Below, piece by piece: positions 22,779 through 29,372 of a stretch of 64,000 bases of DNA (position 1 is its first letter; every line of letters starts with the position of its first letter). Location: NCBI RefSeq assembly GCF_037143375.1, contig NZ_JBAWYV010000002.1:15064-79063 (forward strand), read 5' to 3'. Source of the stretch: Rhodoferax sp. (GTDB lineage Bacteria; Pseudomonadota; Gammaproteobacteria; Burkholderiales; Burkholderiaceae_C). The position numbers were made by a program, and so were the translations under genes. The notes under the pieces were generated by a model. That model did not search any database. It was not told the DNA's origin and saw only the letters and a list, made by a program, of their open reading frames with translations.

Positions 22779-23462
22779 ATGCATATTGGCGTATTGGAAG
22801 ACGATCCGGATCAACAAGCCTTGATGGATTTGTGGCTGCGCAGCGCGCAGCACAGTGTGGAGATGTTTGGCACCGTAGCCGACATGCTGGCGGCCCTCAA
22901 AGGAGGAAGTTTCGACGCACTGCTGCTGGACTGGATGCTGCCCGATGGCAATGGCGGCGAAATTCTGCGCTGGGTGCGTCAAAGTCTGGGCTGGAAACTT
23001 GCGATTGTGGTGCTGACCTCGCGCGACGACGAGCAGACCGTGGTTGATGCCTTGCAGGCCGGTGCCGATGACTTTGTGGTCAAACCAGCCAAGCAGCAGG
23101 AACTCAATGCCCGTCTTTTATCTGCCGCGCGCCGCGCCAGCCCAGGCGGATTGCCTGTCATGCGCATGGGGGCCTACGAGATCGATGTGCCCAAGCACAC
23201 CCTGCTACTCAACGGCACGCCTGTCACGCTGACGCAAAAGGAATTTGATCTCTCGGTGTATCTGTTTCAGAACCCGGCCAAGCTCATGTCGCGCGACCAC
23301 TTGCTCGACCGTATCTGGGGCATCAGCAGCGAAGTGGATTCACGCACTGTCGACACCCACGTCAGCCGCATCCGCAAAAAGCTCAAGCTCGACGGCAACA
23401 TGGGCTGGAAAATGGTGCCGGTCTACGGCTATGGCTACCGACTGGAGCGCGTGGACCTTTAG
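22779..23462 (+). CDS. OmpR-family response regulator (REC plus winged helix)
   Basis: 227-aa ORF with MHIGVLEDDPD and LLLDWMLPDGNG. C-terminal LTQKEFDLSVYLFQNP...VDTHVSRIRKKL. No adjacent cognate kinase. Confidence 0.9.
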   Translation: MHIGVLEDDPDQQALMDLWLRSAQHSVEMFGTVADMLAALKGGSFDALLLDWMLPDGNGGEILRWVRQSLGWKLAIVVLTSRDDEQTVVDALQAGADDFVVKPAKQQELNARLLSAARRASPGGLPVMRMGAYEIDVPKHTLLLNGTPVTLTQKEFDLSVYLFQNPAKLMSRDHLLDRIWGISSEVDSRTVDTHVSRIRKKLKLDGNMGWKMVPVYGYGYRLERVDL

Positions 23463-23797
23463 CTAAACGAAGCCACTGCGCCTTCGGCTGTCTCGTGAAT
23501 GCTGAAGACGCGGTGCATGCGCATCAGTTCAAACAAAGCCAACACGGAACGTGACATATTGCTCAAACGAAAATCGCCCTTGCGGCCGTTGGTGTCACGC
23601 AGGCAGGAGATCAGAGCCCCCAAGCCCGAGCTGTCGACAAATTTGAGACTGGACATATCCAGCACAACGCGGGTCTTGTCCTTGATCAGCTTTTGCATGC
23701 CTTCGCGAAAGTCGCGCACGTTGCTGGCATCGAGATTGTCTTCTTGGATTTGAATGACCAAAACGTCATCGCCTTGAATTTGATTGAGTAGTTCCAC
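23459..23797 (-). CDS. STAS-domain anti-sigma-factor antagonist (SpoIIAA/HsbA-like)
   Basis: 112-aa ORF with LDMSSLKFVDSSGLGALIS, which contains the conserved phosphorylatable serine motif DSSGLG. Its stop overlaps the convergent OmpR-type gene stop. Confidence 0.85.
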   Translation of the reverse strand: MELLNQIQGDDVLVIQIQEDNLDASNVRDFREGMQKLIKDKTRVVLDMSSLKFVDSSGLGALISCLRDTNGRKGDFRLSNMSRSVLALFELMRMHRVFSIHETAEGAVASFS

Positions 23798-23907
23798 GCT
23801 GTGCTCCTGGTGTCTGCGAATGGGTTTGCTTACTGCAGATTAGACGTTGAATTCGGCACCAACTGTGTCTGAATTGTTGCAGTCAACCGGAGGATGGGTC
23901 TGATGAA

Positions 23908-25953: not shown

Positions 25954-28900
25954 GGTGTAGCGCTCCATTCGTATTTGCTTGCCATTTGGTCAAGGCGCTC
26001 ACGCGCCAGATCAAAGTGAAACTTCTTGAGTGGCAAGCCGACTTCGGCTAGCTCTGGTGCCAATGTGCTGCCAGCGACAAGTTCCTGCAAGGCCTTGAAG
26101 CGGTCAATGGCATCGGCCTTGCCTTGCGCCAGCATCGGCAGGATTTCACTGACCAGCGCGCTGATGGCGGCAGGGTCGACCGACTTCTGGTCAAGCCGTG
26201 TTGGGACCTTCTGTGGGGCTAGCGGGGCCGCTGGCAGCCACTTTTCCAGTACCGCCCACAGATCACCCTGCATCACCGGCTTGCTCATCATTTCATCCAT
26301 GCCGACGGCTAGGCAGCGTACTCGAACATCGGTAAAAGCATCGGCACTCAGGGCGATGATGGGGTGGCGCTTCTGCTGGGTCTGTGCCTCCCACTGGCGA
26401 ATGCGCTGGGCAGCCTGATAGCCGTCCATCACCGGCATTTGCAAATCGGTCAGTATCAGCTGCACGCGCTCGCCGCCCATGAGCGCATCGAGTGCCTGTT
26501 GACCGTCGTCTGCAAGCGCCACCTCAAGCCCCATCTGACCCAGCATCACCTTCATCACCATCTGGTTCACTGGGTTGTCCTCAATCACCAGCACACGACC
26601 GCGCAACGGGGTGATCGTCGCTCCAACCCCTGAAGTCGTGCTGATGCCCGCTTGCTCATGCAGATCCAGCGCATCGGCTGGGAGCAGGTCGGCCTGGATG
26701 CGAAACCAAAAACGCGAACCGATGCCGGCCTCGCTCTCTAGGCCCGACTCGCCGCCCATGGCCTGCGCCAGTTTGCGCACGATGGACAGCCCCAGCCCGC
26801 TTCCGCCGAACTGGCGCGTGGTGGAGTTGTCTGCCTGAGAGAAGGTTTGAAACAACAGCGCCTGCTTGTCTTTGGCAATCCCAATGCCGCTGTCAGACAC
26901 CGAGAATTCAAGTGTGGCGGTTTGTTCAGTGCACACCACTTCACGCGCTTCGATGCGGATAACCCCCTGCAGAGTGAATTTGATCGCATTGCCCACGAGG
27001 TTAGAAAGCATCTGGCTCAAGCGGTTCGGGTCGCCCAGGTAGCGATTTTCGGGCCCGTTCCAGCGGACTTCAATGGTCAAGCCCTTGGCGCGGGTCGACG
27101 GGGTAAACAGGTCCTTTATTTCACCGATGAGTTGCGCTGGTGCCAGCGCGATGGCTTCAAGATCAAGCTTGCCGGCTTCAATCTTGGACAGATCCAGGAT
27201 GTCGTTAAGCAGGGCCAGTAAGGACTGGCCGGAGTTCAGAATGGTGCCTGCATAGTCGCGCCGATTGGACTCCGAGATGTTGGGCTGCATCAGCACCTGC
27301 GCCATGCCCAGCACCGCGTTCAACGGCGTGCGGATTTCGTGGCTCATATTGGCCAGAAACTGGCTCTTGGCCAGGTTGGCCACTTCAGCCGCTTCACGCG
27401 CTTGCGCCAGGACTTGCTCGGCCGTTTTGAAGGCTGTGATGTCGGTATAGATCAGCAAAATCCAATCTTTGGAAATTACCTTTCCACGGACTTCTAAATA
27501 AGTACCGTTGGCCTGAAGTCGCTCGAAACAGATGGTTTTTCGGTCGTGCATTAATTGAAGAAACCCGCCCAAGACTTCTTCATAGGTCTGATCCGGGTAG
27601 TCGCCCCGGTCAAAATTGAAACGGACCATTTCCGCAAAATTCAAACTCTCTTTTTGAGCCAGTTCAGGCGGGTAGCCCAGGATGGGTCCAAACTGTTGGT
27701 TGCGCAGAACCACGTCACGCGCCTCATTCAAAACCACCACACCGAATGTCAATGACTCCATGACCTCAGTAAGGAATAGGCTGAGATCGGCTATTTTTTG
27801 CTGGCGCGCCTTGTTGACGCTGTTGTTGATCATCGTGGCGCGGGAGCCGACTACTTGGCCTTGTACATCGAAGACGAGATTGGAACTGATCAGGACAGGA
27901 ATGTGGGAGCCGTCCTTGCAGATGACCTCGTGTTCAATATTCTCGAGCTTGCCGTCTCGCATCAGTTTTGGAAAAACCTGCGCGAATAGGGCTATATTTT
28001 TTGCATCAAAAAACTGGGTCGGGCTTTGCCCTATGACCGCTTCGCGGGTGTAGCCCAGTAAATCAAGCGCCGTCTGGTTGATATCGATGATTAGGCCCTG
28101 TGCATCCAACGAGTGATAGCCGCAAGGGGCTTGGTTGTAGAGGTCAGCCAGCGCCTGGGTGCGCTCCATGACTCTGGATTCAAGGTTCAGGTTGGCTTCT
28201 ATGAGCAACTTTTCGCTGTCGCGCGAGTTCTGCAAGGCGATCTGTACTTCGATTGACTTCAAGCCTAATTTTTGCGATGTATCTGCCATTGCAGTGGCAA
28301 CTTCATTGGCTTCCTCAAAGTAGACTTTGGGCACACGCAGCGGGTTGCCGTCGATCAAGTCTCTGGCTGGCAGGGTCAGACCTGTCACTGAACGGGCAAT
28401 TCGACGGCCCATGAACAGGGCTAAGACGATCCCAAGACCAAGCAGCAAGAGCAAGCCCACCCCCATCAGTGCTGCTTTGCGCATGAGTGCCAACTCCAGA
28501 CTCTCGCGGGGAATGCCAATACCCACCCGCCACTTGGAGTTGGGGGCGGTGCTGAACGCTGTCAAATTTCGAGCGCCTTCTTGCGACACCAATTCAATGA
28601 CACCTTCGTTTTGCTCGTTGAACATCTTATATTTGGTTAATGCTGCTGCTTTCCCCACTGTCTCTTCAAACTTATAGGTCCGTGCGGCAATCACCCCCTT
28701 GCTGTCTAGCGCAAAGGCAATCCAGTCCTTGGGGAAACTTTGCTGGCGAAGCAACTCATTGATACGTTCCGGATCGAAGCTAATGCTCAGAACGTAAATA
28801 ATTTTTCCTCCATTGAACACTGGCACGGCAATGGTGATGGCGTGCTTTTTTCGGAAGCCGCCAATAAAGACATCGGAGATCACGGACTGCCCAGTCGCAA

Positions 28901-29372
28901 AGACCTGACGCAATTGCGCCTGATTGCCATAAAGCGGCAAAGCAGCACCGAAGTCGGTCAATGTGTTGAGAACTACTTGCCCGCTCGCGTCGCTGAGCAC
29001 CATATGCCCGGCTATTTGGACCCTTGCTAAGGCGCTAACGGCATTGTTTTGAAACAGGGCCAGTTTGTTGTCCCTTAGCGTTTGGTCCTGAGCGAGCATC
29101 AAAGCCGTCGTTTCGAGTTGCGAAAACTTCTGATCCAGCACCAGACTGAGGGCATGGGCCATCTGGACGGATGACTGTTCAAGTTGCTTGCGTTCGACTT
29201 GAATGTCCTTGATAAAAAGGAAAATGGTCCCGACCATGCCGGGGAGCATGCAACCGAGTACCAGTCCCATGAGCAGGGTGCGCACAGTGGGCAGGCGATG
29301 ACCACGCATGGCGTGACTGCGAGTCTGTGGGGGCAGGCGCGCCCGTTCGTAAATCTGGCGAATGAAATTCAT
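25950..29372 (-). CDS. hybrid sensor histidine kinase (periplasmic Cache-like sensor, HAMP, PAS, HisKA, HATPase, REC, C-terminal extension)
   Basis: 1140-aa ORF. Two TM helices flank a ~260-aa extracytoplasmic domain. H-box [13 protein letters not shown]. ATPase DSGIGI and [13 protein letters not shown]. Receiver [11 protein letters not shown]...[15 protein letters not shown]. The C-terminal ~100 aa are Hpt-sized, but I could not see an HxxKG motif. Confidence 0.9.

Follow-up and report, generated by a model that had tools for sequence, protein, structure and literature searches.

Three minus-strand genes at positions 23459-29372

The stretch of DNA analysed here, 64,000 nucleotides of a Rhodoferax sp. 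assembly (contig NZ_JBAWYV010000002.1, positions 15,064 to 79,063; hereafter the window, in whose numbering all coordinates are given), carries on its minus strand genes for a hybrid sensor histidine kinase, for a response regulator in which a receiver (REC), a PP2C/SpoIIE phosphatase domain and a GGDEF diguanylate cyclase domain are joined in one chain (the fusion), and for a single-domain STAS protein. An earlier note on this DNA had described the three as lying in series, and the list of open reading frames (ORFs) confirms them at the following positions:

25950-29372, minus strand: hybrid sensor histidine kinase, 1140 aa (WP_336897611.1; the NCBI protein is identical)
25953-26246, minus strand: C-terminal tail of the kinase, residues 1043-1140, a conserved extension of ~98 residues
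25950-25953, minus strand: ATGA overlap of the fusion start (ATG, 25953-25951) with the kinase stop (TGA, 25952-25950)
23908-25953, minus strand: REC-PP2C(SpoIIE)-stalk-GGDEF response regulator, 681 aa (WP_336897610.1)
23459-23797, minus strand: single-domain STAS protein, 112 aa (WP_336897609.1)

The ATGA overlap, with a GGAG 9 nt upstream of the fusion ATG, bears out the translational coupling of the kinase and fusion genes that had been read from the sequence. An alternative in-frame ATG of the fusion at 25968 is judged less likely, and the start used by NCBI gives the 681-aa form, which is named there 'SpoIIE family protein phosphatase [Rhodoferax sp.]'. The stop codon of the fusion is separated by 110 nt, as measured again here, from the GTG start codon of the STAS gene, which has an AGGAG 6 nt upstream and whose 3' end overlaps a converging gene for an OmpR-type regulator by 4 nt. 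Neither the whole window nor positions 23300-30100, the latter searched in sensitive mode, gave any match to Rfam, and therefore no c-di-GMP (cyclic di-GMP) riboswitch is present.

All three domains of the fusion are recognized with scores far above the cut-offs: 87 bits for Pfam Response_reg (PF00072), 146.3 bits for SpoIIE (PF07228, cut-off 25), 141 bits for GGDEF (PF00990, cut-off 23.8) and 131 bits for TIGR00254 (cut-off 37.4). As the domain E-values range from 1e-15 to 1e-43, chance matches are not an issue. Together with a long helix in the AlphaFold2 (AF2) model, these domains uphold the REC-PP2C-coiled coil-GGDEF architecture that had been proposed:

25618-25932, minus strand: receiver, residues 8-112, with D12, D13, D55 (phospho-acceptor), T85 and K107
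24748-25428, minus strand: PP2C/SpoIIE phosphatase domain, residues 176-402, from Pfam, motif alignment and fold
24463-24615, minus strand: 51-residue helix leading from PP2C to GGDEF, residues 447-497, from the AF2 model and the point of PAS insertion in relatives
23953-24468, minus strand: GGDEF diguanylate cyclase domain, residues 496-667, from Pfam and alignment

The catalytic signatures of the receiver, the phosphatase and the cyclase are intact on alignment. D55, T85 and K107 of the receiver are invariant across 15 fusion homologues. The PP2C domain contains the motifs VDGDFSD (D188/D190/D193), GDVMGKG (D208), YSDGITE (D339) and QDDKT (D393/D394), of which the first two align with GDFVD and DVSGHG of Pseudomonas aeruginosa RssB and the last two with SDGI and EDDMT of Bacillus subtilis SpoIIE. 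The metal-binding residues of this domain had been named in the earlier note as one test of its reading, and on alignment to SpoIIE and RssB all four acidic ligand positions are present (D190, D208, D339 and D394); we take their SpoIIE counterparts to be D610, D628, D746 and D795. These ligands are kept in every fusion of at least 70% identity. In the GGDEF domain, the signature motif (575-579) and the residues for metal and GTP binding, D534/D536, N542 (next to D543), D551, K661 and R665, are present and invariant, the PleD equivalents presumably being D327, N335, D344, K442 and R446, and the presence of D551 argues against a Hypr-type altered specificity. An RxxD I-site (REID, 566-569) precedes GGDEF by five residues, which is the canonical spacing, and its R566 and D569 are invariant in the 15 homologues. 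The earlier suggestion of an apparently active cyclase with an I-site is therefore consistent with the residues found, and in the model proposed below the fused cyclase would be active and product-inhibited. The closest solved relatives of the GGDEF domain are MorA, PleD, TpbB and SiaD.

The AF2 model of the fusion (mean predicted local distance difference test score, pLDDT, 77) consists of the receiver (1-110), a helix of 54 residues (111-164), the PP2C domain (176-401), a low-confidence segment (408-445), the helix of 51 residues (447-497) and the GGDEF domain (500-672). Over the PP2C domain the pLDDT is mostly 75-92, and only the loop 238-242 is of low confidence. The helix 447-497, whose best heptad register is 71% hydrophobic at the a and d positions, is a probable dimeric stalk. 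By Foldseek, the N-terminal two-thirds of the fusion resemble P. aeruginosa RssB and the stalk and GGDEF domain resemble SiaD and DgcB; the PP2C domain alone matches SiaA-PP2C (6k4e) with a target-normalised template modelling score of 0.81 and the C-terminal part of RssB with 0.74-0.78. Orthology with named proteins was rejected on the equivalog profiles, as the fusion scores 135 bits against a cut-off of 290 for SiaD (NF038266), 264 against 474 for PleD (NF007135) and 125 against 700 for Pseudomonas RssB (NF045505). Nor does it have the full HsbR-type order (REC-PP2C-HATPase_c_2): no RsbW-type Ser kinase domain is found at its C-terminus, where the stalk and GGDEF domain take its place.

The STAS protein scores 63 bits with Pfam STAS (PF01740) and 66.2 bits with TIGR00377 (cut-off 53.45), which agrees with the assignment made in the earlier note. 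Its Ser56, in the motif FVDSSGLG, aligns with the phosphorylated Ser of SpoIIAA (DSSGLG in the wild-type structure 1th8 and DASGLG in the variant 1tid), and HsbA of P. aeruginosa is likewise phosphorylated at Ser56 (PMC5085249). No gene for an RsbW/SpoIIAB-type kinase or an anti-sigma factor lies beside the STAS gene. The 64-kb window encodes exactly one STAS domain, one RsbW-type domain and one GGDEF domain. As a partner switch needs a kinase for its STAS protein and the three genes include none, the only candidate in the window is the RsbW-type domain of an HsbR-like protein whose gene lies 21.6 kb away.

The hybrid kinase is of the Cache type, as had been recognized before, and is composed of a transmembrane (TM) segment, a periplasmic dCache_1 domain (61-285), a second TM segment, PAS_9, PAS_7, HisKA (668-734), HATPase_c, a receiver (927-1042) and a tail without a conserved His. 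The two hydrophobic segments, at residues 32-55 and 298-326, lie on either side of dCache_1, and every Pfam domain scores above its gathering threshold. The tail was previously described as an Hpt-sized extension lacking the HxxKG histidine, and this description holds: its sole His, H1119, gives way to R, G or D in relatives, and no Hpt profile (PF01627) matches. It is 65-71% identical in close relatives and can still be aligned at 40-48%, which makes it a conserved part of the kinase; residues 1043-1140 gave no Pfam match even at an E-value of up to 10, and a profile of the tail gave no match in the PDB. In an AF2 model of the receiver and tail (221-aa query), the tail is predicted to form four short helices (148-163, 168-180, 185-197 and 201-214 of the query) with pLDDT of ~83-94, and the Foldseek matches of this model are dominated by the receiver. 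The tail is not recognizable as an Hpt domain, hhalign against real Hpt domains giving a probability of 0.3%; MAFFT sets the Hpt His opposite Leu or Arg, and on these grounds, with the negative Pfam and PDB searches, the name pseudo-Hpt is not applied to it here. PF24896, which is found on some of the proteins bearing the tail, proved to be another receiver model and not a tail family. The same tail also occurs on kinases that are paired with plain REC-PP2C regulators (locus L092). By Foldseek, the kinase receiver is closest to receivers that use Hpt partners, namely GacS D1, PA1611 and Sln1, which favours, without proving it, a relay through the free Hpt protein encoded at 10564-10863.

Upstream of the kinase gene lies an unusually long, AT-richer intergenic region of ~690 nt (29373-30064), in which the 10-mer aatttaacga is repeated in tandem in ~2.4 copies (29707-29730); this region has no Rfam match and no more promoter-like sequences than its shuffles. 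Beyond it, 690 nt upstream of the kinase and on the same minus strand, 30065-30985 encodes a 306-aa fusion of a class III adenylate/guanylate cyclase with FHA, a phospho-Thr-binding domain.

Distribution and origin of the fusion

A word-indexed search of 5.8 billion proteins, clustered at 90% identity, returned ~55 clusters, from metagenomes, with REC, SpoIIE and GGDEF in one chain, all at least 51% identical to the query and, where a source is named, all labelled Rhodoferax or Comamonadaceae. One of them (P0001) matches the window fusion at 100%. In some of the relatives, one to three PAS domains are inserted exactly in the stalk. The next-best matches are REC-SpoIIE and REC-SpoIIE-HATPase_c_2 proteins, with 55-64% identity over REC-PP2C. 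The most divergent fusion relative (P0053, 1045 aa, on a contig of ERZ1426830) is 51% identical, with a PAS insertion and an intact GGDEF domain, and three of its PP2C Asp ligands are replaced by N, E and H; no kinase gene precedes it, and a gene for a CheB-CheR fusion follows.

These results bear on the notion that one of the catalytic domains of the window fusion is non-functional, the GGDEF domain acting for instance as a c-di-GMP sensor through its I-site, or that the ORF is an artefact of annotation or assembly. Signalling proteins often contain GGDEF and PP2C domains that have degenerated, and P0053 demonstrates that the PP2C domain has decayed within this very family. In the window fusion, however, both domains have their full set of active-site residues, which are invariant in close relatives, and the ORF recurs, uninterrupted, in ~55 clusters from many independent assemblies as well as in NCBI RefSeq, so that a frameshift or an assembly artefact does not account for it. 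We consider an inactive domain or an artefact very improbable.

A second search, with the PP2C domain alone (HMMER against 1.84 billion representatives at 50% identity), gave 71,946 matches, and the best 150 were classified with local hidden Markov models. This classification covers the nearest PP2C clade, and independent fusions in distant PP2C clades lie outside its view. The best 150 of the 71,946 matches are distributed as follows:

RsbW-type kinase after PP2C: 116, of which 25 also have a receiver
REC-PP2C only: 17
Other architectures: 16
GGDEF: 1, which is the representative of the fusion family itself

With an RsbW-type kinase in 116 of the 150 nearest representatives, the PP2C domain of the fusion falls into a clade devoted to STAS partner switching, of which the GGDEF fusion is a rare offshoot. 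The same clade includes a 657-aa protein (P0348) in which a receiver, PP2C, an RsbW-type kinase and a STAS domain (FIDSSGLS) are combined in one chain. That the architecture might prove common or already characterized had been raised beforehand; it was found in one of the 150 nearest PP2C representatives, and no description of a PP2C-GGDEF fusion was found in the literature searched, in which PP2C/STAS modules had earlier been linked to c-di-GMP enzymes by gene neighbourhood (PMC9239204). Two further scans were less specific. The patterns used on a genome collection, with full-length alignment, matched ordinary GGDEF proteins, so that only one of the 80 loci kept (L011) carries the fusion and the scan gives no usable phyletic count; the PP2C/stalk junction used on metagenomes matched generic coiled coil, and at least five true junctions are among the matches listed.

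The origin of the fusion is visible at an orthologous locus (L091) in which the gene for a kinase 85.5% identical to the window kinase overlaps a gene for a REC-PP2C-kinase protein (P0057, positions 2364-4040 of L091), with a convergent gene for a 391-aa multi-TM GGDEF protein adjoining the pair. Judged by sequence, this locus is the arrangement of HsbR and HsbD, described below, as separate genes. The identities of the window fusion to P0057 and to other fusions compare as follows:

Window fusion and P0057: receiver 82-83%, PP2C 54-56%
Window fusion and other fusions: receiver 72-85%, PP2C 73-88%

Over REC-PP2C as a whole, the window fusion and P0057 are 64% identical. The break in identity falls in the helix that links REC and PP2C, and the PP2C-GGDEF part (~73-88%) is closest to other fusions. 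Given that the receiver and the upstream kinase are nearest to the REC-PP2C-kinase locus and the PP2C domain is nearest to the fusions, recombination in the REC-PP2C linker has exchanged the modules downstream of the receiver. From these comparisons, the fusion is read as a partner-switching regulator of the HsbR type in which a cyclase took the place of the kinase module at an orthologous locus.

Signalling genes and polysaccharide cluster around the series

The left part of the window contains further signalling genes and an exopolysaccharide cluster:

170-1819, minus strand: HsbR-like REC-PP2C-RsbW-type kinase, 549 aa (WP_336897590.1), with the only HATPase_c_2 domain in the window (Pfam)
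1816-5994, minus strand: PAS-rich unorthodox hybrid kinase, 1392 aa, with two receivers and a genuine Hpt domain; overlaps the HsbR-like gene by 4 nt
6072-21388, minus strand: Wzx/Wzy-type exopolysaccharide cluster, broken by the plus-strand genes of the next line
8291-10863, plus strand: operon within the polysaccharide cluster, encoding a REC-PAS-HisKA-HATPase kinase (8291-10198), a single receiver (10185-10580) and a free Hpt protein (10564-10863)
21965-22651, minus strand: PilZ-like protein, 228 aa, two genes beyond STAS

A tblastn search with two RsbW-type queries detected no second copy in the window, and the HsbR-like protein is the sole candidate there for the kinase of the STAS protein. 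On longer contigs, whose sequence runs on past the left end of the window, the HsbR-like gene has no STAS gene beside it and is directly followed by Wzy_C, AAA_31 and GT2 genes. The free Hpt protein (99 aa, motif HRLAGAAGGYG) may relay phosphoryl groups from the hybrid kinases to the REC-PP2C regulators. The PilZ-like protein scores 21.2 bits with Pfam PilZ, below the cut-off of 22.5, and has the two motifs for c-di-GMP binding, RGSDR at 115 and NISRGG at 146, by which it is a candidate for a local c-di-GMP receptor. The exopolysaccharide cluster encodes Bac_transf, GT2, GT4, hexapeptide acyltransferases, a Polysacc_synt_3 flippase, Poly_export/SLBB and a 651-aa CBM6-like protein, and is the likely output of the circuit.

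At the edge of this cluster, the 651-aa protein (19433-21388, minus strand) has a signal-peptide-like N-terminal hydrophobic stretch and only a weak C-terminal match to CBM6, and may be an uncharacterised glycan-active enzyme; a counterpart of equal length is found at the same place on the contig of P0002, a fusion 89% identical to that of the window.

Comparison of gene neighbourhoods separates what is conserved from what is local. The kinase and the regulator overlap by 4 nt in nearly all contexts (L001, L004, L007, L091, L092, L113 and the contigs of P0002 and P0009), and the pair is kept whatever the sensor is: dCache in the window, 7TMR-DISMED2 in most relatives, and CHASE or PAS in REC-PP2C relatives. 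The STAS gene adjoins the fusion only in the window and on the P0002 contig, which shares the OmpR-type, glyoxalase and 651-aa genes with the window as well and has, in place of the PilZ-like gene, a gene for a 227-aa protein with no Pfam family on record. Of the earlier description of three genes in series, the coordinates and the kinase-fusion pair thus stand, and the triad of kinase, fusion and STAS is not a conserved unit. In a second locus type (P0007, P0008 and P0009), a STAS gene whose product is 65% identical to the window STAS lies 6 kb downstream of the fusion, and the genes follow one another over ~10 kb in the order fusion, two exopolysaccharide priming transferases, REC-HK/REC/Hpt operon, STAS and PAS-SpoIIE protein. 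The REC-HK/REC/Hpt trio likewise directly precedes STAS in the loci of the L004 type (L004-L006). In the window, the end of the Hpt gene at 10863 is followed by a convergent GT4 gene, and the STAS position has been lost there. Near the kinase/REC-PP2C pair of locus L092, a 62%-identical STAS gene occurs with a gene for a free RsbW-type kinase.

Such variation raises the alternative that the fusion is essentially a receiver-gated diguanylate cyclase, in which PP2C acts on another phosphoprotein or is mainly a dimerisation or regulatory spacer, and that the STAS protein belongs with the REC-HK/REC/Hpt and HsbR-like genes and was brought next to the fusion by local rearrangement. The placing of STAS after Hpt and 6 kb from the fusion in the L004-type loci, the loss of that position in the window, the lack of a STAS gene near five other fusion contexts, the degenerate PP2C domain with a retained GGDEF domain in P0053, and the 110-nt gap are all consistent with it. 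Every fusion of at least 70% identity, however, has the PP2C ligands without change, the PP2C domains of this clade are nearly always joined to STAS kinases, and in both locus types with long contigs the STAS gene is found within the same signalling and exopolysaccharide neighbourhood. An incidental STAS gene therefore appears doubtful to us.

A proposed two-output regulator in a partner-switching circuit

The observations above, which cover the genes and how they are coupled, catalytic residues that are intact, folds as predicted, relationships to other families and gene neighbourhoods, lead us to propose, with a probability of roughly 0.55, that the fusion belongs to the HsbR/RsbU partner-switching lineage as a response regulator with two outputs, works in an HptB/HsbR/HsbA-like circuit and controls the surrounding polysaccharide locus. 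By its sequence, the C-terminal RsbW-type Ser kinase usual in this lineage would have been replaced by a coiled-coil stalk and a diguanylate cyclase. Among the evidence counted for this proposal are the following points: the window has one STAS, one RsbW-type domain and one GGDEF domain in addition to the free Hpt and the exopolysaccharide cluster; the loci of P0007, P0008 and P0009 keep the same set of components despite another gene order; and the PP2C clade is overwhelmingly directed at STAS proteins.

Under the proposed mechanism, the periplasmic dCache domain of the co-translated hybrid kinase would bind a ligand, and a phosphoryl group would reach Asp55 of the fusion either directly from the HisKA His or from the kinase receiver through the free Hpt protein (10564-10863). 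Phosphorylation of the receiver would reset the helical linkers 111-164 and 447-497 in the dimer, by which the action of PP2C on phospho-Ser56 of the adjacent STAS protein and the synthesis of c-di-GMP by the pair of GGDEF domains, the latter under I-site feedback, would be altered together. The STAS protein would be phosphorylated again by the RsbW-type domain of the HsbR-like protein (170-1819), which would itself be driven by its own hybrid kinase, and the phosphorylation state of STAS and the local c-di-GMP, read for example by the PilZ-like protein (21965-22651), would set the production of exopolysaccharide. How each phosphoryl group is passed on, which protein PP2C acts on and in which direction regulation runs are inferred here from what is known of the families.

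The known systems closest to the proposed circuit are from Pseudomonas. In the HptB-HsbR-HsbA-HsbD pathway of P. aeruginosa, whose output is biofilm formation versus motility, a REC-PP2C regulator receives its input from hybrid kinases and an Hpt protein, as is proposed here; its single-domain STAS protein carries the phosphoryl group on Ser56, which is the site predicted here, and the state of this protein is linked to a GGDEF cyclase that has an RxxD I-site (PMC5085249; Valentini et al. 2016). The window, moreover, has a complete HsbR-type protein and a free Hpt of its own, and locus L091 has an HsbR-like gene beside an HsbD-like gene. Unlike HsbR and HsbD, the cyclase of the window is fused to REC-PP2C in place of the HsbR kinase domain and is soluble, without the six-TM anchor; no FlgM or sigma partner is visible in the window, and the likeness drawn here is one of architecture. 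In the HsbA-CfcR-CfcA system of P. putida, c-di-GMP and biofilm are under the control of a single complex made up of a multi-sensor hybrid kinase, a REC-GGDEF response regulator and a STAS protein; CfcR has no PP2C domain, and the phosphatase is the separate HsbR (bioRxiv 10.1101/2024.11.25.625174). The SiaABCD circuit of P. aeruginosa likewise brings together a PP2C phosphatase, a partner-switch kinase, a small phosphorylated partner and a stalk-GGDEF cyclase (PMC8457831; PMC7647112), and the AF2 model of the fusion matches its SiaA-PP2C (6k4e) and SiaD (7e6g). The Sia components, however, are four separate proteins, of which SiaA is a membrane protein with HAMP and without a receiver and SiaC is a DUF1987 protein phosphorylated on Thr.

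Other systems resemble parts of the fusion. RssB (PA2798; 3eq2/3f7a), among the REC-PP2C regulators, is the best match in structure and sequence for residues 8-343, which comprise the receiver, the long helix and PP2C, but RssB stops after PP2C. In PleD, WspR and DgcR, as is proposed for the fusion, a receiver controls a GGDEF domain with an I-site, activation occurring via a helical stalk or dimerisation, and none of these has a catalytic domain between receiver and stalk. In Vibrio fischeri, production of the biofilm matrix is controlled by SypE, a receiver-controlled bifunctional PP2C/RsbW regulator, and the STAS protein SypA, whose genes lie within a polysaccharide locus; SypE differs in its kinase-REC-PP2C order and lacks a cyclase, and c-di-GMP is outside that module. 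Covalent joining of partner-switch parts (PP2C, RsbW kinase and STAS) is known from Mycobacterium tuberculosis Rv1364c (3ke6) and is seen in P0348, which join the switch to itself, whereas the window fusion joins it to a second-messenger synthase.

In three Pseudomonas cases the small partner acts on a cyclase: phosphorylated HsbA binds and controls the cyclase HsbD (PMC5085249), HsbA binds and controls CfcR/CfcA (bioRxiv 10.1101/2024.11.25.625174), and SiaC binds and controls the cyclase SiaD (PMC8457831). These precedents, which are also counted for the proposal above, suggest another role for the window STAS protein, as the allosteric partner of the fused cyclase: PP2C of the fusion would write the state of STAS, one form of STAS would bind the stalk or GGDEF domain of the fusion and switch synthesis on or off, and the final target would be the fusion's own cyclase instead of an anti-sigma factor. 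Besides these published interactions, the C-terminal 230 residues of the fusion match profile positions 44-252 of SiaD (NF038266), their predicted fold matches SiaD as bound to SiaC (7e6g) and that of PP2C matches SiaA-PP2C, the window shows no gene for a sigma or anti-sigma factor, and a Rosetta-stone argument predicts fusion of a phosphatase and a cyclase that share a partner. Set against this, the SiaD equivalog score is far under its cut-off, SiaC is not a canonical STAS protein whereas the window STAS is, and many fusion loci have no STAS gene nearby. On balance, we regard docking of STAS on the fused cyclase as unlikely. A further extension, in which the fusion is a self-contained, cis-acting partner switch, its PP2C setting the phosphorylation of STAS and its own stalk or GGDEF domain reading it by docking, would unite a His-Asp relay, Ser phosphorylation and c-di-GMP feedback in one dimer and would make the His-less four-helix tail of the kinase a new docking or pseudo-Hpt module for REC-PP2C regulators; this seems rather improbable.

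Several observations weigh against the two-output regulator in an HsbR-like circuit. In the P0043, P0003, L093, P0045 and P0053 contexts, the flanks that are available contain no STAS gene, and the loss of PP2C ligands in P0053 indicates that phosphatase activity is dispensable in at least one branch. The proposed STAS kinase is encoded 21.6 kb away, and other STAS or RsbW genes may exist outside the 64-kb window. As the hybrid kinase has no recognisable Hpt domain, the phosphotransfer can be drawn in either of the two ways given above. Scans for promoters and terminators gave counts no higher than expected from shuffled sequence and nothing in the 110-nt gap, so that no such signal marks out the transcription units. 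The coupled switching of both outputs by one receiver is a conjecture, if a plausible one.

Partner switching and c-di-GMP are known to meet in Pseudomonas, through HsbR/HsbA/HsbD, HsbA/CfcR and SiaABCD, and what is at issue is how widespread and how direct that link is. The covalent fusion of phosphatase and cyclase adds independent evidence, of the Rosetta-stone type, for one circuit outside Pseudomonas, with one protein combining two activities that are divided between separate proteins in HsbR/HsbA/HsbD and SiaABCD. As a compact, soluble single chain, it also lends itself to the question of how two different catalytic domains are governed by one receiver and two helical linkers, and bears on the linker-based allostery proposed to be shared by PPM phosphatases and GGDEF enzymes, for both of which control by coiled-coil linkers is reported (PMC12143880). 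The fusion is a natural example of modular replacement of a kinase by a cyclase and not a new principle; its practical impact is modest, as the organism is an uncultured Rhodoferax from freshwater or groundwater and signalling proteins of bacteria often combine domains in unusual ways.

Housekeeping genes make up the right half of the window: guaBA, typA, truB, infB, nusA, rimP, an opp transporter and a decarboxylase gene. Also outside the signalling genes, 31996-33219 (minus strand) encodes a 407-aa protein in which a TadA-like cytidine/adenosine deaminase domain is combined with an alpha/beta-hydrolase domain.

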